A stretch of 64,000 bases of DNA from NCBI RefSeq assembly GCF_017348835.2, contig NZ_CP071375.1; one strand, 5' to 3'. Of the stretch, positions 1 to 20,088 are shown piece after piece; position 1 is the first letter of the stretch; each line of letters starts with the position of its first letter. Both the position numbers and the translations under genes were made by a program. Under the pieces are notes generated by a model. That model worked only from the letters and a program-made list of their open reading frames with translations, had not been told where the DNA came from and made no database searches. The stretch comes from Escherichia coli. GTDB lineage: Bacteria; Pseudomonadota; Gammaproteobacteria; Enterobacterales; Enterobacteriaceae.

Positions 1-1749
1 TACGCTTAACGGCTCCCACGGTTTGAGAGTCATCCATGCGGTCATTGTCTGCGTTGGCAGATCGGTTATCTTGCCGATGTCTTTGCGTTTGGCGTCAGCG
101 TGGATCAGGGCGTAGCTCAATCCTACATCCAGTATATTGCTGATTTTCCCCTTAATACCGGCATCCAGACCGCTGTAATCCACCGTGCCGCTGTTCTGAT
201 TTTGAATGGTATCGGCATCAATATTGTGCGAGAGGATGGCATCACTCACCCGGTTATAGTAAACGCTGACCTCAAATCCCCAGTCGCGCGTGAAGGCACC
301 ATTCCAGGTTAAATCCACCCCGCGAGCGCGTTCCGGCTTGAGCTGCGGGTTAACAATCGCTATCTGGTTATACGCAGGTTTGGATGTGGTATAGCGTTCT
401 TTCAGCGTCGGAAAGCGTGTGCGGTCATAGTACGAAAGCGCCAGAGTGTCTTCATTGGCAAAGTGGTATTTCCCCATCACCTGCCAGTTAAAAGCTGACT
501 GATTGTTGTCGTCATAATGGGTGATGCTGCCATCTTTCTCATGTTTTTTCGCTTCTACGCTATCGCGCCAGTCATAGCTGATTCCAGCCACGACATCGAC
601 ATTATCGGCAGCAGCCCATTGATATTCACTGGCGAGCGACCAGGTACGATCTTCATAGCGATCGTAAGCGGCGTGCGGCGCACCTTTTTCCCGGTGTACG
701 TCATCTTTCCAGTTAACGGCAAACGACAGCAGATCGTTTTCACGCACATCGGCTGCCAGTTGTAATCCGGCACCGTCGCTGTAATCGGAATAATGGCTGT
801 AGCTGCCTTTTTTATTTTTCAAATCAGCCAGCGAGTTGTACATCATCAGCGTATTTTCAAAGGTGTCGCGATACAGCCGACTTTTCAGGGTAAAACGATC
901 GTTTAGTTGGGTCGTTCCCTGATAATAAAAACTTTCTTTGTCATACTCTGGCCACTGCCAGTAGCGTGATTTTTGACCACTATTTCCGCTGTATGGCGGG
1001 TTATCTTTTTCACCATCCTGCTTAATGTAAGTCAGTGTGTATTCATCGTTTTCACGTGGTGTAAATCCGAGCTTCACAATGCCGCGTTTATCATCAGCCG
1101 ATGAATTAATCATCTTGCCGTGGTTGCCTGCAATATCATTATTTACACCATGCGGCAGGCCGAGAAAATCCTGCTTTAGCTGGCTACCGCTGACTTGCAA
1201 ATACCCCAGATCGCTGCTGGCGGCAAATGAAGCATGCATATCGTAGGCATTGTCCTGGCTACGGCTCCATCCCTGGCGATATCCCAGACTTGCTTCCAGA
1301 GGTTTTGTTGGCTTCTGGGTGGTGATATTAATGGCTCCGCCCATCTGATTAGGCCCCTGAAGCAGCGACGAATACCCTTTGGAAACTTCGACTGCCCCCA
1401 GATTGTTGGTCAGAATCCGCGCCAGATCGAGGTTGCCGTCATAGGGAACATAAATGGGCACACCGTCGAAATAGACCGGCACCTGCCGACTATCAAAGCC
1501 ACGAACTTTTACCTGTTCTTCGTTGCGGCTGCCTGACTTTTGCAGCACCACGCCGGGGACGACACTTAATGCCTGAGCGACATTCTGTTTATCCAGGGCC
1601 TTCATGGTGGGTTGATCGAGAACGGTGGTCGTCGTCGATGATACCGGACTGGACCATACGGTCAGCGAGTCGCTCTCCTGAGCCGCTACGGCCTGCTGGG
1701 TAAAGGCAAGTGATAATGCTGTGCAGAGATAATGTTTTTTGAGTCTCAT
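1..1749 (-). CDS. TonB-dependent outer-membrane receptor (3' end beyond window start)
   Basis: Manual minus-strand translation from ATG at 1747-1749 reads MRLKKHYLCTALSLAFTQQAVAAQESDSLTVWSS... with no stop for 583 codons to position 1. Signal peptide, TonB-box-like DSLTVWS and plug-domain-like motifs (VRGFDSRQVPVYFDGVPI) are present. Absent from ORF track because there is no stop in the window. Confidence 0.75.
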   Translation of the reverse strand, partial: MRLKKHYLCTALSLAFTQQAVAAQESDSLTVWSSPVSSTTTTVLDQPTMKALDKQNVAQALSVVPGVVLQKSGSRNEEQVKVRGFDSRQVPVYFDGVPIYVPYDGNLDLARILTNNLGAVEVSKGYSSLLQGPNQMGGAINITTQKPTKPLEASLGYRQGWSRSQDNAYDMHASFAASSDLGYLQVSGSQLKQDFLGLPHGVNNDIAGNHGKMINSSADDKRGIVKLGFTPRENDEYTLTYIKQDGEKDNPPYSGNSGQKSRYWQWPEYDKESFYYQGTTQLNDRFTLKSRLYRDTFENTLMMYNSLADLKNKKGSYSHYSDYSDGAGLQLAADVRENDLLSFAVNWKDDVHREKGAPHAAYDRYEDRTWSLASEYQWAAADNVDVVAGISYDWRDSVEAKKHEKDGSITHYDDNNQSAFNWQVMGKYHFANEDTLALSYYDRTRFPTLKERYTTSKPAYNQIAIVNPQLKPERARGVDLTWNGAFTRDWGFEVSVYYNRVSDAILSHNIDADTIQNQNSGTVDYSGLDAGIKGKISNILDVGLSYALIHADAKRKDIGKITDLPTQTMTAWMTLKPWEPLSV

Positions 1750-1774
1750 AGAATAAATTCCGTTTAACAAAGAA

Positions 1775-2629
1775 TTAAATAGAGGCTGCGGGTTGCAGAC
1801 TGACTTTAATGTCAGCCGGTGCCGCGTAATAAGGCGCGGAGGTAATAAAGAGGCGAATGCCGCAGTCGAGGTAATTTTTGAGTGTCGTCAGATTAATTCC
1901 GCCGGTCAGAGCCAGCGTGCAGTGGGGAGCCAGCGACGGCGCTATTTGCGCAATTTCAGTTGCCTGTTGCGGACTAAATTTGTCGAGCTGAAGTACGTCT
2001 GGTTGCGCGCGTAACGCGGCGATTGCCTCTTTCGGCGTGTCGGCTTCAACAACAATTTTCTTCTCGGGTGCGTGGCGACGTAACTGATTGATTGCGCCTG
2101 ACCAGTCCTGATTGTCATGAAGAAAATGGCGGTGGTTGGCAAACAATAATATGGTTTCCGCACATCCGGCACGATGAATCAGTCCTCCGGCAGCCAGAAT
2201 TGCCTGCGAGGCCAGTAAGCGGGTGCCCGGAATTGCTTTTCGGGTGCAGGCGATATTGCCATCAGGATAACGTTCACGAAGTAACGCCAGCATTTGAGCG
2301 AGATAATCAGAAACACCGCAACTCCACTCCAGCACATTCTGGACTGCCTTCCATCCCTGATGAAGTGCTGCGGCATTACCCTGCGCACGGATTAGCCGTT
2401 GACCCGCGTTCGCTTGTGAACCGTCGCTGACCGCGTCCTCAATAGTTAATCCCAGCGTAGTTAACATCTTACACGCGATAGAAACGCCGCTGACGCAGCC
2501 GCCCTGACGGAGAAAAAACTCTATATAGCCATGCTGGTGTCCAATATTTAATGCTCTCGTGGTCAGGTCACCGCCCTGGATATCTTCCAGAAGTAACGCA
2601 TCGATTTGTGCCTGAGAAAGGAAAATCAT
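1775..2629 (-). CDS. ModD-like protein (quinolinate/nicotinate-nucleotide phosphoribosyltransferase paralog)
   Basis: 284 aa ORF; N-terminus MIFLSQAQIDALLLEDIQGGDLTTRAL resembles NadC/ModD family; start overlaps upstream gene stop (ATGA). Confidence 0.65.
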   Translation of the reverse strand: MIFLSQAQIDALLLEDIQGGDLTTRALNIGHQHGYIEFFLRQGGCVSGVSIACKMLTTLGLTIEDAVSDGSQANAGQRLIRAQGNAAALHQGWKAVQNVLEWSCGVSDYLAQMLALLRERYPDGNIACTRKAIPGTRLLASQAILAAGGLIHRAGCAETILLFANHRHFLHDNQDWSGAINQLRRHAPEKKIVVEADTPKEAIAALRAQPDVLQLDKFSPQQATEIAQIAPSLAPHCTLALTGGINLTTLKNYLDCGIRLFITSAPYYAAPADIKVSLQPAASI

Positions 2630-13956: not shown

Positions 13957-16842
13957 TTAAAAGCTGAAGCGATATCCTCCGTTGACTTGCTTCTGATCAA
14001 AGAGGTTACCCTGCGTGTAATCCGCTTCGAGGTAGAATGTGTGCTGTTTGTTATACTGTGCACTGACTCCCACGCCGTTATTCCAGCCATTACCTTTGAA
14101 ACTGTACTTCTCCCGGGAGTTGTTCAACAGATATTCTGTATCCCCTGAAAACTCGCGGATAGCGCCAGTCTTCACATACATATTCAGCTGGCTGTTGCCT
14201 GCGGTGATGTCATATCCCAGTATCATACTGGCACGCCCCAGCAGCGATTCGTAGTGATTCAGATGTATATTGAGGCCATTACTCGCCTTCATAGCCATCT
14301 CATTCTGGTGGCTGTATGTGAGCTGGGTTTGCGGCTCTATATAGAACCCATAACCAGTAGGGGTCAGGTTGAATCTCTGCCCGGCTTCCAGGGAGATGCT
14401 CAATCCATTCGCAGTGCCGTTGGCGTTAACGCCGTTGTTCTGACTGTCCCGTACGTGGAAACTATTTTTCTGGCGCGATGCTTTTACAACGAGATCGCTG
14501 TAAAAACCGCTGTGTGCCATGTAACTGGCGTACATTCCCATATAGTCTGAACGTGCGGTACCGTCGCCTCCGCTATAGTCCGGCGATGCATGTGTTGAGC
14601 CAATATACAGACCGACATACAACGGCATTTCATCAGAGAGACGTTTATCCCCACCAAACTGGATACCGCTGTAACCCATGTCAAAGCCGCTCAGTTTGCC
14701 ACTGGCGAAGGAGTCCAGGCTTCCCCCATAACTGCGCAGCCAGATATTACCGTCTTTACTCTGATTTCGCAGGTCACCCATCCGTTGCATCAGCGTACGG
14801 TTTTCAACATAGTTCAATAAGTAACCAACATTGAGATAATTGCCGCCAGCATCTGCGGTCGTGGTGGGTTTAGGTGTGGGCGTGGGGGTAGGCGTAGGAT
14901 CGGGTTCAGGCGTAGGATCGGGGTTGACTATGGGAGGCTGAGCGGGAGCCGGCGTTGGTTCAGGATTTGGAGTCGGCTCCGGAATTGTCCCGGAAGCATA
15001 AAGCTCCCAGTTAGTGCCATTTTTACGCACATCGTACAGATATCCTCCCAACTCAACCTGAGAAGACGCGCTGAACGAGGCCGCGCCGTCAGTGGTTTTT
15101 ACCACTGTCAGAACTTCATTTCCCGTTGTGGCTTCGCTGCCCTGGTTACGGATAGCCAATACATGATTACCAGCACTACTCCCGCTGATATTCAATAAAT
15201 CCCCTTTATTATTAACGCCATTACCCTCGCCAACAACATCAGCACGCATAATAAAGGTACTGTTACCGCTCAGGTTCTCTACGTTTAATGTGGTAAATGT
15301 GCCGGCAGTTGATGCGTGGCTGGCAAAATCGACAGTTGAATGGCTCAGCGCCAGCGTGTCGAGATTAGAATTACTTGTTACGTTCCAGACGCTGTTATTC
15401 ATTGCAACGTCCAGTTTCCCGTCATTGACATTATCGCTAAGGGAGGAACCTGTCCAAGCCGACCCAGGGTGCATATCCAGATTGATTAGCCCACCTTTGG
15501 AGAGAACGCTACCGTTGATAAGCATACGACCCGAAGCGTTGATGCGGCTGGCGGCATAACCATCGTCATGTTGCGTTGCGATGGCCATCTGGTCGGGTGT
15601 ACTCATATCAATGACCAGATCGCTCGTGAGGTCGATCTGGCTGTTGGTCATGGCATAAATCCCCCTGGCTCCTGCCGCGCCGGTGATAGCCAAACTGTCT
15701 CCGGTTATTCTACCGCCGCTGAGCGCCCACAAACCCAGCGCCAGACTGCCATTACGATCAACCGTAATATCGGTATTTTGCATGTTGATAACAGCCGTTG
15801 CCGTCTGGGCCGAGGCACCATAAGAACCGCCGGAAAAGATGCTGTTTCGTTGCGCTGCCGTGCCAGAAAAATTGATTGTCGCGTCTGAACCACTGGCTAC
15901 GAGACCACCGCCCTGCGCGGAAGAAATATGGCTATCTGCACCGATAGTGGTTGTACCACCACGAACTTCGACGCCATTGGCCGCGGCTCCAGTTACATCA
16001 ACAGTGAGTGCATTCGCGCTAACCTGGCCAAAGCTCCAGAGGCCGTGTGCATTATCGCCACTGGTTTTAATGGAACTGTTTGTTCCGAGATCGACAACAG
16101 AGTTTTTCTGTACGTTTATCCCCATGGCGCTGTAACCCTGAACATCGATTGTCAGGTCTGTCGCCGTAAAACGCGCAGCACCATTGGCGTTATTGCCGTT
16201 GAGACCACCGATATAAACACCTGTACTTCCATCGGTCTTGATTTTACTTCCGCTTCCAAGATCGACACTGGTGCCATAGTCATTGATGGTTAGGCCTATA
16301 CCGTTCGAGTTTTCAATGGTGAATTGAGTGGCTGTTAGTGTTGAGCTATGCCCAATAATGATGCCGTCATCGTTACTCTTAATGGTGCTGCCTGTGCCTA
16401 AGTCAGCATGGGTATAGTCACCAATTAAATTAATGCCGATGGCAGAGGTTTGACCAACAACATCTACTGTGAGTCGGTTAGCTGTCAGGGAGCTGTTTTT
16501 GCCCTGAATAATGATTCCTTTTGCATATCCAGAGGCGTCGTTGACATTGACGGTGACATCATTACCCAGGTTGATATTGCCAGGCGTGTTTCCTGCTGGG
16601 GTCATTACACCATAGAGGTTTCCTGATGGATCGGCGGTATCTCCTGTAATTCTGTCACCATCATTAATAGTAATATTGGTGCCATATTGACTTCCTGTAT
16701 CAGCAGCTATCAGCAGGGGGGAAAAGATAATTGCATTCAAACCAATAGCGCCAAATTTTATCAGTTGAATTGAGGGCGAACGGATTTTTAATTCAGCGAG
16801 ACGATCGGCTTTGGTATTCCCATTGTGTTGTTTGATGCCCAT
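13957..16842 (-). CDS. ycgV: AIDA-like autotransporter adhesin
   Basis: 961 aa; Gly/Thr/Asn-rich passenger repeats, Pro/Thr-rich linker PEPTPNPEPTPAPAQPP...TPTPTPTPKP, C-terminal beta-barrel ending ...GYRFSF. Confidence 0.9.
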   Translation of the reverse strand: MGIKQHNGNTKADRLAELKIRSPSIQLIKFGAIGLNAIIFSPLLIAADTGSQYGTNITINDGDRITGDTADPSGNLYGVMTPAGNTPGNINLGNDVTVNVNDASGYAKGIIIQGKNSSLTANRLTVDVVGQTSAIGINLIGDYTHADLGTGSTIKSNDDGIIIGHSSTLTATQFTIENSNGIGLTINDYGTSVDLGSGSKIKTDGSTGVYIGGLNGNNANGAARFTATDLTIDVQGYSAMGINVQKNSVVDLGTNSSIKTSGDNAHGLWSFGQVSANALTVDVTGAAANGVEVRGGTTTIGADSHISSAQGGGLVASGSDATINFSGTAAQRNSIFSGGSYGASAQTATAVINMQNTDITVDRNGSLALGLWALSGGRITGDSLAITGAAGARGIYAMTNSQIDLTSDLVIDMSTPDQMAIATQHDDGYAASRINASGRMLINGSVLSKGGLINLDMHPGSAWTGSSLSDNVNDGKLDVAMNNSVWNVTSNSNLDTLALSHSTVDFASHASTAGTFTTLNVENLSGNSTFIMRADVVGEGNGVNNKGDLLNISGSSAGNHVLAIRNQGSEATTGNEVLTVVKTTDGAASFSASSQVELGGYLYDVRKNGTNWELYASGTIPEPTPNPEPTPAPAQPPIVNPDPTPEPDPTPTPTPTPKPTTTADAGGNYLNVGYLLNYVENRTLMQRMGDLRNQSKDGNIWLRSYGGSLDSFASGKLSGFDMGYSGIQFGGDKRLSDEMPLYVGLYIGSTHASPDYSGGDGTARSDYMGMYASYMAHSGFYSDLVVKASRQKNSFHVRDSQNNGVNANGTANGLSISLEAGQRFNLTPTGYGFYIEPQTQLTYSHQNEMAMKASNGLNIHLNHYESLLGRASMILGYDITAGNSQLNMYVKTGAIREFSGDTEYLLNNSREKYSFKGNGWNNGVGVSAQYNKQHTFYLEADYTQGNLFDQKQVNGGYRFSF

Positions 16843-17012
16843 ACCACTCCTATATAGTACCCAGGCTATGGGTCTATGGATTTTGTCATTTTGTTTAAGT
16901 CAATGAATAATATCCTCTTATCATCATGATATTTGTATGGTGCAATCATGATGAGCTTTGAACCGCCCCGGAAATCCTGGAGACTAAACTCCCTGAGAAA
17001 GAGGTAAACAGG

Positions 17013-17339
17013 ATGACTAAAAATACTCGTTTTTCCCCCGAAGTCCGTCAGCGGGCGATTCGTATGGTTCTGGAAAGTCAGGATGAATATGACTCACAGT
17101 GGGCGGCAATTTGTTCCATTGCCCCAAAGATTGGCTGTACGCCGGAGACTCTGCGTGTCTGGGTTCGCCAGCATGAGCGGGATACCGGGAGTGGTGATGG
17201 TGGACTCACCACCGCTGAACGTCAGCGTCTGAAAGAGCTGGAACGTGAAAATCGTGAACTGCGCCGCAGTAACGATATCCTTCGCCAGGCTTCCGCTTAT
17301 TTTGCGAAGGCGGAGTTCGACCGCCTCTGGAAAAAATAA
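17013..17339 (+). CDS. IS3-family transposase OrfA (HTH/leucine zipper)
   Basis: 108 aa [22 protein letters not shown]... recalled as IS629 OrfA; ends in A-rich slippery run ggaaaaaataa. Confidence 0.88.
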
Positions 17340-18226
17340 TGCCACTGCTGGATAAGCTGCGTGAGCAGTACGGGGTCGGACCGGTATGCAGCGAACTGCA
17401 TATTGCCCCGTCAACGTATTACCATTGTCAGCAACAGCGACATCATCCGGATAAACGCAGTGCCCGTGCGCAGCACGATGACTGGCTGAAGAAAGAGATA
17501 CAGCGCGTATACGATGAAAATCACCAGGTATACGGTGTGCGTAAAGTCTGGCGTCAGTTGTTACGGGAAGGTATCAGAGTGGCCAGATGCACTGTGGCAC
17601 GTCTCATGGCAGTTATGGGACTTGCCGGTGTTCTCCGGGGTAAAAAGGTCCGCACTACCGTCAGCCGGAAAGCCGTTGCCGCATGCGACCGCGTAAACCG
17701 TCAGTTCGTGGCAGAACGTCCAGACCAGTTGTGGGTGGCTGATTTTACCTGGGTAAGCACATGGCAGGGCTTCGTTTATGTGGCGTTCATCATTGATGTG
17801 TTCGCCGGATACATCGTGGGATGGCAGGTCTCATCATCCATGGAAACAACATTCGTGCTGGATGCACTGGAGCAGGCGTTGTGGGCCCGTCGGCCGTCCG
17901 GCACAATCCATCACAGTGATAAAGGTTCTCAGTATGTATCGCTGGCCTACACGCAGCGGCTTAAGGAAGCCGGATTACTGGCATCAACAGGGAGTACTGG
18001 CGACTCGTATGACAACGCGATGGCTGAGAGCATCAATGGTCTTTACAAAGCGGAGGTAATACACCGTAAGAGCTGGAAAAACCGTGCAGAAGTGGAACTG
18101 GCCACACTCACGTGGGTGGACTGGTATAACAATCGACGATTGCTGGAAAGGCTGGGCCATATTCCTCCGGCAGAAGCAGAAAAAGCTTATTATGCTTCCA
18201 TCGGAAATAATGATCTGGCAGCCTGA
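17339..18226 (+). CDS. IS3-family transposase OrfB (DDE catalytic domain), expressed as OrfAB by -1 frameshift
   Basis: 295 aa [15 protein letters not shown]... in -1 frame relative to OrfA; DDE-type motifs (HSDKGSQY, DNAMAES). Confidence 0.88.
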   Translation: MPLLDKLREQYGVGPVCSELHIAPSTYYHCQQQRHHPDKRSARAQHDDWLKKEIQRVYDENHQVYGVRKVWRQLLREGIRVARCTVARLMAVMGLAGVLRGKKVRTTVSRKAVAACDRVNRQFVAERPDQLWVADFTWVSTWQGFVYVAFIIDVFAGYIVGWQVSSSMETTFVLDALEQALWARRPSGTIHHSDKGSQYVSLAYTQRLKEAGLLASTGSTGDSYDNAMAESINGLYKAEVIHRKSWKNRAEVELATLTWVDWYNNRRLLERLGHIPPAEAEKAYYASIGNNDLAA

Positions 18227-18911
18227 GTTCACAGATAAAACACTCTCCAGGAAACCCGGGGCGGTTCACTTCTCTGAGAATAATTCTCTATTACCGGGCA
18301 AAATCAGGAACACAGGAATTAATATATATTTAACATCCCCCTTACAAAGGTGAGTTTATATCGAGTTATTCCCTAAGTTGTCGTTACTTATTCCAATTCG
18401 TTACTATGAATATGGCAAAAATATTACAACAAACAGCGGTTAAAAAATTTGGTGAAGATTTTTGTAATAATCCTAATTAGTTATGGGATTTTCGCTTGAT
18501 GTATCTGCATAACAAAAACAATATGCGCCATTTTTGCATTACTAATAAGAAAAAGCAAAAAACATCGATATTCATTTTTGGTCAATGGGTTTTCTGGCCT
18601 ATCGTTGTTATTGTGCTACTGGTTATCATTTTCATCTTGCCAGGATCGCACGTAATCACGTTATTCGGGGACTTTATCTGCGGGATATTACCCTTCAGGT
18701 AAGTCCTTTTCTCGCCAGCATATTGGAGCGTGATCAATATTGATCAGCTGTGAAGGGGGCTGATGTGTAGTGGAACAAAAACTGACGTTATATCACTGCT
18801 AATGAGATATCCGTCATCTGAACACTTATGTCTTTAATTATTTTGGTGGTCACTGTAGGCAATAAGCACAAAAGTGTAGGATGTTACAAGAATGATTAGG
18901 ACTCGGTGAAA

Positions 18912-18937
18912 TGAAAAATCCACGCAATTGCGTGGAT
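18912..18937 (-). terminator. rho-independent terminator downstream of ychF
   Basis: Hairpin atccacgc-aatt-gcgtggat (18918-18936) followed on minus strand by T-run. Confidence 0.6.
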
Positions 18938-18996
18938 TTTATATACTTTTGCGCTCTTCATGAGATTTAGCGAAACCTCATGAGACAATAAATTAA

Positions 18997-20088
18997 TTAG
19001 ACGTTGAAAAGGAAGTTCATCACATCGCCATCTTTCACGATGTAATCTTTACCTTCTGCACGCATTTTGCCTGCTTCTTTCGCGCCTTGTTCACCTTTGT
19101 AAGTGATGAAATCTTCAAACGAGATGGTTTGTGCACGGATAAAGCCTTTTTCAAAATCAGTATGGATTTTGCCCGCTGCCTGCGGCGCGGTTGCTCCAAC
19201 CGGAATGGTCCATGCACGCACTTCTTTCACCCCAGCGGTGAAGTAAGTTTGCAGGTTCAGCAGCTTATAACCGGCACGGATCACACGGTTCAGGCCCGGC
19301 TCTTCCAGCCCAAGCTCCTGCATAAACTCGTCACGTTCTTCGTCGTCCAGTTCGGCAATGTCTGCTTCAACAGCAGCACAAACCGGAACCACAACAGAAC
19401 CTTCTTTCGCCGCGATTTCACGCACCTGGTCAAGATATGGGTTGTTTTCAAAACCGTCTTCGTTGACGTTGGCGATGTACATTGTTGGTTTCAGCGTCAG
19501 GAAGCTCAGGTAACGAATAGCCGCTTTCTCTTCAGCGCTTAAATCCAGCGCGCGCAGCATACCTGCGTTTTCCAGCTGGGGCAGGCATTTTTCCAGGACC
19601 GCCAGCTCAGCTTTCGCGTCTTTATCGCCACCTTTGGCTTTCTTCTGTACGCGATGAATCGCACGTTCGCAGGTGTCGAGGTCTGCCAGCGCCAGTTCGG
19701 TGTTGATAACTTCAATATCGTCAGCCGGGTTAACTTTGCCGGAAACGTGAATGATGTTGTCATTTTCAAAGCAGCGAACAACGTGACCGATCGCTTCGGT
19801 TTCACGGATGTTAGTCAGGAACTGGTTACCCAGACCTTCGCCTTTCGATGCGCCTTTTACCAGACCGGCGATATCGACAAATTCCATGGTCGTGGGAAGC
19901 GTACGCTGCGGTTTTACGATTTCAGCCAGTTGATCCAGGCGAGGGTCAGGCATTGGTACGACGCCTGTGTTCGGCTCAATGGTGCAGAATGGAAAGTTGG
20001 CCGCTTCAATACCGGCTTTGGTCAGCGCGTTGAACAGGGTAGATTTCCCGACGTTGGGCAAACCGACGATACCGCATTTGAATCCCAT
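18997..20088 (-). CDS. ychF: ribosome-binding ATPase YchF (Obg-family)
   Basis: 363 aa [23 protein letters not shown]... G1 motif and TGS domain; matches YchF. Confidence 0.95.

Follow-up and report, generated by a model that had tools for sequence, protein, structure and literature searches.

Positions 18269-18996 of the window, by which we mean the whole stretch of 64,000 nucleotides of Escherichia coli DNA that was analyzed (contig NZ_CP071375.1 of assembly GCF_017348835.2), are best explained as a non-coding intergenic spacer, and the open reading frame (ORF) of 68 codons within it as a by-product that is not under selection and most likely has no functional product. We assign this reading a probability of roughly 0.8. 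The spacer is a mosaic that consists of AT-rich DNA known to be bound by H-NS in strain K-12, a relic of an IS6-family transposase gene and the terminator of ychF, and that in the present strain additionally contains IS629. Under this explanation, the first piece, a segment of 30% G+C, would belong to the type of DNA associated with horizontal acquisition; its counterpart in K-12, located upstream of the cryptic autotransporter gene ycgV, has been documented as a 'promoter island' to which H-NS binds and which is silent in transcription. The second piece is what is left, on the minus strand, of a transposase gene of the IS6/IS26 family (~157 bp), and the third is the intrinsic terminator of ychF. 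The ORF would then have arisen as a by-product spanning the junction between the AT-rich segment and the relic, with a Lys/Asn-rich N-terminus that represents translated A-rich DNA and a hydrophobic tail that is read from the T-rich strand opposite the transposase relic. Transcription of the ORF, if any, would be expected to be repressed by H-NS.

The interval corresponds to three quarters of the E. coli intergenic spacer between ycgV and ychF, on the side of ychF, and contains the distal upstream region of ycgV. It matches this spacer at 95-100% identity in 4726 of the 5426 complete E. coli genomes, and no feature predicted by PGAP lies under the spacer among the matches listed. The autotransporter adhesin gene ycgV (13957-16842, minus strand) was recognized as an ORF of 961 amino acids and from the PGAP annotation of strain PE164 and of K-12; it is a pseudogene in several strains. 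The right-hand neighbor, ychF (18997-20088, minus strand), also served as the positive control for purifying selection. The spacer is split by an IS3-family element of 1310 bp (16959-18268, plus strand), the breakpoints of which were derived from the alignment to uninterrupted spacers and from the sequence, and which, judging from its length and end sequences, we take to be IS629. The insertion site is 116 bp upstream of the ycgV ATG, so that ycgV is separated from the rest of the spacer, and the element is flanked by a CTT target duplication (16956-16958 and 18269-18271). It encodes orfA and orfB (17013-17339 and 17339-18226), with an ALIL frameshift pseudoknot detected by the Rfam scan at 17294-17410 (120 bits), and its transposase is denoted 'IS3 family transposase' by PGAP. 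The arrangement of ycgV, IS element and spacer in strain PE164 is identical. The initial annotation, made from the sequence of the window, described a very AT-rich island of about 730 bp between IS629 and ychF, and this description holds: the G+C content of the interval is 35.9%, compared to ~50-55% in the flanking genes, its left border (18269) is the right end of the IS, with the CTT duplication included, and on the right it is bounded by the stop codon of ychF.

The AT-rich DNA has a G+C content of 30-39% overall, with a trough of 30% at 18300-18600. Alignment with K-12 places the orthologue of promoter island 1255333_301 (Table 1 of PMC3661553) at 18313-18612, a segment of ~30% G+C that takes in 186 bp of upstream sequence together with the first 114 bp of the ORF itself. 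In K-12, this island is located between ycgV and ychF and is assigned to H-NS class 'A', that is, H-NS binding was found in all compiled ChIP studies (PMC3661553). Panyukov and Ozoline list the island as associated with foreign genes, and promoter islands bind RNA polymerase but give essentially no full-length RNA (PMC3661553). Additionally, a genomic SELEX peak has been mapped between ycgV and ychF, at 1255834, and YbdO binds the proximal 126-bp fragment upstream of ycgV. To place the island, we used gene coordinates of U00096.2, which are consistent with the K-12 spacer of 768 bp seen in the alignment.

H-NS binding and promoter-island status of the present segment are thus predictions carried over by alignment from the literature on the K-12 orthologue. 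Outside a 75-bp indel, the present DNA is orthologous, and 97-98% identical, to that of K-12, the strain in which the H-NS-silenced promoter islands of Shavkunov, Panyukov and Ozoline were described, and it resembles these islands in its high A+T content, in its variable presence from strain to strain and in its location upstream of an adhesin gene that was acquired horizontally, the ORF region being lost together with ycgV. The differences are that IS629 separates the present segment from ycgV, unlike in K-12 island 1255333_301; that the present allele retains the 75 bp missing from the K-12 allele; and that a simple scan for the sigma-70 consensus shows no dense promoter signals (under the strict consensus, 0 sites vs 3.1 expected in shuffled sequences), although the published definition of the islands employed a different algorithm, PlatProm. 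A phage search for the AT-rich DNA gave no match. A plasmid origin was considered and rejected: the matches labeled 'plasmid' are pieces of E. coli chromosomes, with the exception of the IS6 match described below.

The second piece of the spacer (18588-18744, minus strand, ~157 bp) is a decayed internal fragment of a transposase gene of the IS6/IS26 family, as indicated by blastn and tblastn. It corresponds to about residues 135-194 of the 234 residues of the transposase, contains a frameshift and small deletions, and retains the INxDxAP and NNVIxCDxGKxK segments. The nucleotide match covers a core of 66 nt, of which 55 (83%) are identical to IS6 tnp genes carried by plasmids of Serratia and Pantoea (71 bits; E=4e-9 in a search of 7.3 Gb), and falls within annotated IS6 transposase CDSs. 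At the protein level, 17 of 31 residues are identical in the region of residues 164-194 (QIKSPNNVITCDPGKMKMITSSTITTIGQKT in the relic vs QIKYRNNVIECDHGKLKRIISATLGFKSMKT in the transposase), preceded by a weaker piece (11 of 25 residues identical, residues 135-159) that is in another frame but directly adjacent on the upstream side and colinear, and in which INIDHAP of the relic is aligned with INTDKAP of the transposase (residues 135-141). The transposase segments INTDKAP and NNVIECDHGKLK bear two residues of the DDE triad, its second D and its E. Because the Pfam and NCBIfam HMMs gave no match to this segment and the protein-mode tblastn matches were marginal (E about 9 per match), the assignment to the IS6 family is based on the E-value of the nucleotide match and on colinearity. 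The segment is a relic rather than an element: given the lack of an HMM match, the frameshift and the absence from the interval of an IS26-type terminal repeat (GGCACTGTTGCAAA-like), only a fragment is preserved. Thus, the likeness to IS6/IS26 transposase genes consists in the 83% identical core and in the colinear translated similarity over residues ~135-194, whereas, unlike IS6/IS26 elements, the relic is short (~157 bp), frameshifted, altered at key residues by E to T and H to P changes, and devoid of terminal inverted repeats.

The third piece contains the intrinsic terminator of ychF (18915-18940, minus strand), located 57 nt past the ychF stop codon. It is a hairpin with an 11-bp stem, a GC core and T-runs on both strands (minus-strand tail, UUUUUCAUUU), with computed folding energies of -15.5 kcal/mol on the minus strand and -17.5 kcal/mol on the plus strand (z about -4.8 and -4.9, respectively); judged from the sequence, the terminator is bidirectional in form. 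The last ~100 bp of the spacer, including the hairpin, are also conserved in E. coli genomes from which both ycgV and the ORF are missing.

The ORF extends on the plus strand from TTG 18496 (68 codons) or ATG 18499 (67 codons) to TAA 18700-18702, in agreement with the frame of 68 amino acids reported in the initial annotation, and the strongly hydrophobic C-terminal half noted there is borne out by a Kyte-Doolittle 19-residue mean that peaks at 2.96 (residues ~31-53), behind a basic NKKKQK stretch. Residues 1-22 are polar or basic (MYLHNKNNMRHFCITNKKKQKT), and, at 67 or 68 residues, the predicted product has the form of a small hydrophobic single-pass peptide. The bias in DNA composition suffices to explain this form. 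The ORF straddles the junction between island and relic, with residues 1 to ~30 derived from the 30%-GC island and residues from ~31 onward located opposite the relic, where the plus strand is 40% T; T occupies 49% of the second codon positions of the ORF, and the tail is hydrophobic because T at this position encodes Ile, Leu, Val or Phe. The length of the ORF is no more than expected by chance, given that 31% of Markov-1 random sequences with matched length and composition hold an ORF of at least 68 codons. The strength of the Shine-Dalgarno (SD) sequence, GGGA located 10 nt upstream of the ATG, is unremarkable: its anti-SD pairing energy is -4.0 kcal/mol, compared to an average of -4.7 for the first ATGs of ORFs with 200 or more codons, and values of -3.0 or stronger are attained by 38% of all ATGs. 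The possibility that the ORF is a remnant of a larger gene on the plus strand was rejected, as no frame on this strand was similar to anything.

To follow the ORF within the species, the spacer was aligned from 20 complete genomes that were picked at even steps down the similarity ranking, regardless of the state of the ORF. Of these genomes, 19 have an open frame, which occurs in three C-terminal forms of 67, 84 and 59 codons. The 84-codon form results from replacement of TAA with CAA, such that the same frame reads on to ...AYWSVINIDQL, whereas the 59-codon form results from the in-frame deletion, in the K-12 and B types, of a 75-bp segment with GCCAG direct repeats at its ends (18641-18715). 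In the remaining genome, that of strain XJ34, a TGG to TGA change at 18588 cuts the ORF to 29 codons. Altogether, the 67 codons show 15 nonsynonymous changes, 7 synonymous changes and 1 nonsense change in the 20 genomes; because 3.8% of single-base changes create a stop, ~0.9 nonsense changes are expected, vs the 1 observed among 23. The ratio of nonsynonymous to synonymous changes is no different from neutral (P=0.12-0.32, from the counts in 12 genomes, 13 and 7, respectively).

The estimates of diversity in the same 20 genomes lead to the same picture. For the ORF, pN=0.030 and pS=0.055 (pN/pS 0.54), and the diversity of the flanking non-coding DNA is 0.035-0.038, whereas the last 381 nt of ychF yield pN=0.0003 and pS=0.071 (pN/pS 0.004). 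Thus, pN of the ORF is about 100-fold that of ychF and about equal to the diversity of the non-coding flanks, and purifying selection on the ORF protein was not detected in this sample of 20 genomes and ~22 substitutions. Indels of 1-2 bp number 0 inside the ORF vs 6 in the flanks (P=0.13). The frame is open in most E. coli lineages, but only at divergences of at most 6%, at which neutral retention is expected; the probability that 20 random substitutions create no stop is ~0.46. Some alleles of the ORF in the protein collection are frameshifted, one such allele occurring on 11 contigs, and others carry premature stops, an IS1 insertion or a deletion of 5 residues. The entire ORF region is missing from 1309 of the 5426 complete genomes (~24%); in strain HH45, ycgV and the spacer are deleted from ~16909 to ~18881, and in some other genomes, the region was removed by IS1-associated deletions. 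The evolution of the ORF is neutral-like, without upkeep by selection.

No homologues of the ORF outside Escherichia and Shigella were found among 5.8e9 clustered proteins, where the only matches were variants of the same ORF, and a profile search of 1.84e9 representatives likewise recovered only such variants. Exact peptide patterns, which diverged non-coding orthologues would escape, matched only two K-12-type contaminant contigs in 100,044 species-representative genomes. Hence, neither orthologues beyond the species nor a constant length of the ORF were observed. In the initial annotation, conservation of the reading frame in related strains had been named as a check of the ORF; the frame does stay open in 19 of the 20 E. 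coli genomes, but this conservation extends neither to the C-terminus nor beyond Escherichia and Shigella. Searches against protein families yielded no Pfam matches, only noise in NCBIfam (E of 0.46 or worse), nothing in PADLOC apart from a noise match of the 84-residue form (E=0.25), and only weak matches typical of transmembrane segments in PHROGs. In the Rfam scan of 16500-19500 (E<=1), no antitoxin or sRNA family was detected and the ALIL pseudoknot was the only match above threshold. Below the threshold, two 'Leu_leader' matches corresponded to the terminator hairpin and one CrcZ match was noise. The minus strand of 18269-18905 contains no promoter-like or terminator-like site, with the proviso that a consensus scan would not exclude an RNA.

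The ORF is present in a single copy per genome (median of 1 place) and on more than 1000 contigs, and the exact peptide has been deposited many times as a 'hypothetical protein' or 'membrane protein' (e.g., ECH74115_1683 and CBG34079.1). The peptide string was not found in the full texts searched. In the portions of the supplements of ribosome-profiling, smORF and 3'-end-mapping studies that were accessible (Stringer 2021, Fesenko 2024, Hücker 2017, Neuhaus 2017, Adams 2021), neither the peptide nor the locus was found, and the accessible supplements of the Cappable-seq study of transcription start sites (Ettwiller 2016) yielded no K-12 coordinates for the locus; for both, absence from partial supplements is weak evidence.

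Several observations count against the chance-ORF reading. The frame is open in nearly all sampled genomes and free of the small indels found in the flanks, although with P=0.13; the K-12 deletion is in frame, and the stop-loss form continues in the same frame. The pN/pS ratio is below 1, and weak constraint is compatible with a sample of ~22 substitutions. The SD-like GGGA is of moderate strength, and the downstream hairpin could end a plus-strand transcript. Finally, many submitter pipelines of GenBank call the ORF a 'hypothetical' or 'membrane' protein.

An alternative reading is that the ORF is a genuine young gene, restricted to E. coli, that would have emerged de novo across the junction and would encode a small inner-membrane protein expressed only once silencing by H-NS is relieved. 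Such a gene would account for the frame that is open in 19 of 20 genomes and on more than 1000 contigs; for the NKKKQK stretch that makes the N-terminus positive-inside, with an ideal transmembrane segment behind it; for the moderate SD together with the hairpin and T-run downstream on the plus strand; and for the pN/pS of 0.54, with mostly conservative V/I/L changes in the hydrophobic segment. However, V/I/L exchanges are the default outcome of G/A transitions in T-rich codons, pN is that of the non-coding flanks and exceeds that of ychF by about two orders of magnitude, nonsense changes are as frequent as neutrality predicts, conservation does not extend to the C-terminus, ~24% of the genomes lack the region or have it deleted, no relatives were found, and the published material searched, some of it accessible only in part, contained no evidence of expression. 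We therefore regard a young gene of this kind as unlikely, and a weakly constrained proto-gene as quite unlikely; the more specific version, in which the ORF is a very young, E. coli-specific proto-gene for an inner-membrane peptide that is silenced by H-NS and still near neutral, appears improbable. The overprinted or antisense ORFs and proto-genes of E. coli (EHEC overlapping-gene literature; reviews, PMC12315717) offer a further comparison: the present ORF is likewise lineage-restricted, partly antisense to a CDS (in this case, a dead one) and called a 'hypothetical protein' by some pipelines, but those candidates were proposed from RNA-seq and Ribo-seq signals, none of which were found for this ORF.

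The initial annotation compared the ORF to a small membrane protein or a type I toxin-like peptide, while allowing that it could equally be a chance ORF. With neutral-like diversity and no homologues, it is the chance reading that is favored, and the membrane-protein and toxin readings are not. A type I toxin-like membrane peptide, the translation of which would be checked by an antisense or nearby small RNA, would fit a small, hydrophobic, intergenic peptide in a region that, according to the literature, is transcriptionally repressed in K-12, and the ORF shares with the E. coli type I toxins (Hok, Ldr, Ibs, TisB, ShoB, ZorO and DinQ) the basic N-terminus and one hydrophobic helix. Unlike these toxins, it resembled no toxin family in Pfam, NCBIfam or PADLOC at the level of sequence or profile, and no antitoxin RNA was found: there was no antitoxin or sRNA family in Rfam, where the sub-threshold matches were to the terminator hairpin, and the scan of the minus strand in and next to the ORF showed neither promoter-like nor terminator-like sites. 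Furthermore, the ORF is single-copy and evolves in a neutral-like manner, and its toxin-like part is the least conserved one, the C-terminal 20-25 residues being replaced or deleted in whole phylogroups. Most type I toxins are shorter than 67-84 residues, and the ORF exceeds them in length. Taken together, these features make a toxin extremely improbable. A different possibility is that the ORF is irrelevant and that the segment is conserved at the DNA level as a cis-regulatory module for ycgV, providing distal H-NS nucleation or bridging and, possibly, sites for other regulators. The promoter-island and H-NS data on K-12 (PMC3661553), the genomic SELEX peak, the binding of YbdO to the proximal ycgV upstream fragment, and the co-occurrence of the segment with ycgV, including their joint loss, are all compatible with such a role. 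Nevertheless, the diversity of the segment (0.035-0.038) is lower than that of synonymous sites in ychF (0.071) but not strikingly so, the segment tolerates IS629, IS1 insertions and the 75-bp deletion, and ycgV itself is a pseudogene in several strains. We consider the chances of a cis-regulatory role to be about even; it is compatible with, and largely contained in, the explanation of the interval as a non-coding spacer with a chance ORF, and from that explanation we infer the absence of ORF function.

The AT-rich island has already been published, and the ORF has already been deposited as a hypothetical protein, whereas two details, both minor, are new, namely, the IS6 relic and the derivation of the hydrophobic tail from its antisense strand. 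Two points were not part of the initial annotation: the identity of the interval with the known ycgV-ychF spacer, H-NS-bound in K-12, and the antisense relationship of the tail to an IS6-family relic. Recognition of the spacer prevents a false label of 'membrane protein' or 'toxin' at a locus for which many submitter pipelines call a hypothetical protein, and the relic explains why the predicted product looks like a membrane peptide, as the frame is read from T-rich DNA antisense to a decayed transposase gene. Should translation be shown, the ORF would become a small case of de novo gene birth, and, if it is indeed a proto-gene, this birth would be datable and would have occurred by overprinting of an IS relic, and three natural C-terminal alleles would be available for comparison. 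More broadly, the locus may serve to illustrate the way in which AT-rich xenogeneic DNA gives rise to hydrophobic pseudo-ORFs.

The spacer between ycgV (autotransporter adhesin gene; 13957-16842, minus strand) and ychF is interrupted by an IS629 element that, together with its CTT target duplications, occupies window positions 16956-18271, 116 bp upstream of the ycgV start. A 126-bp 'ycgV promoter' fragment was bound by YbdO when used as an EMSA probe (PMC11681634); the IS629 insertion point falls within this probe, whose forward primer spans it. Owing to the insertion, the distal upstream DNA bound by H-NS is probably no longer coupled to ycgV. An identical insertion is present in strain PE164, which matches the window at 100%. 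The ycgV gene itself is often decayed among strains: in three of the eight additionally sampled strains (L024, L026, and L027) PGAP reports an internal stop and classes the gene as a pseudogene, in NT1N28 it is truncated at the N-terminus by IS1, and in HH45 only small fragments of it remain.

Two contigs, one from an 'Actinomycetes bacterium' MAG (L017; JAEWQO010000123.1) and the other, 400 bp long and of low coverage, from the Streptomyces sp. DH24 assembly (L018; NZ_JARVKW010000136.1), are 99.6-99.8% identical to the ycgV-ychF-pth DNA of E. coli K-12 and almost certainly represent laboratory E. coli contamination of these public assemblies. Several spacer-matching PLSDB 'plasmid' records (matches H105, H106, and H109) are 4.8-4.9 Mb long and are E. 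coli chromosomes filed under plasmids; other 'plasmids' in PLSDB, of 90-310 kb, contain this chromosomal spacer as well and may either have been misassembled or be pieces of a chromosome.

Two sub-threshold Rfam matches to 'Leu_leader', one per strand, were obtained at 18825-18982 (31 bits vs the gathering score of 50). An attenuator at this location was rejected, these matches being accounted for by the hairpin and T-runs of the ychF terminator.

The 75-bp segment at 18641-18715, deleted in K-12/B-type strains, has the 5-bp direct repeat GCCAG on both sides, which suggests slippage or microhomology as the route of its loss. In 23AR0303 (L016 1-1800, aligned to window 1194-1927 and 18711-19007), an IS1 junction fuses the equivalent of window ~1927, in the TonB-dependent receptor/ModD region, directly to ~18711. 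By implication, about 17 kb has been lost here through IS1-mediated deletion, including dha/ycgV and most of the small hydrophobic ORF (18496-18702, plus strand). Ecol_542 (L006 1-2600), which lacks ycgV, carries a tyrosine integrase gene and ISEc24 directly past the ychF terminator, and the site downstream of ychF thus seems to be a recurrent point of insertion and replacement.
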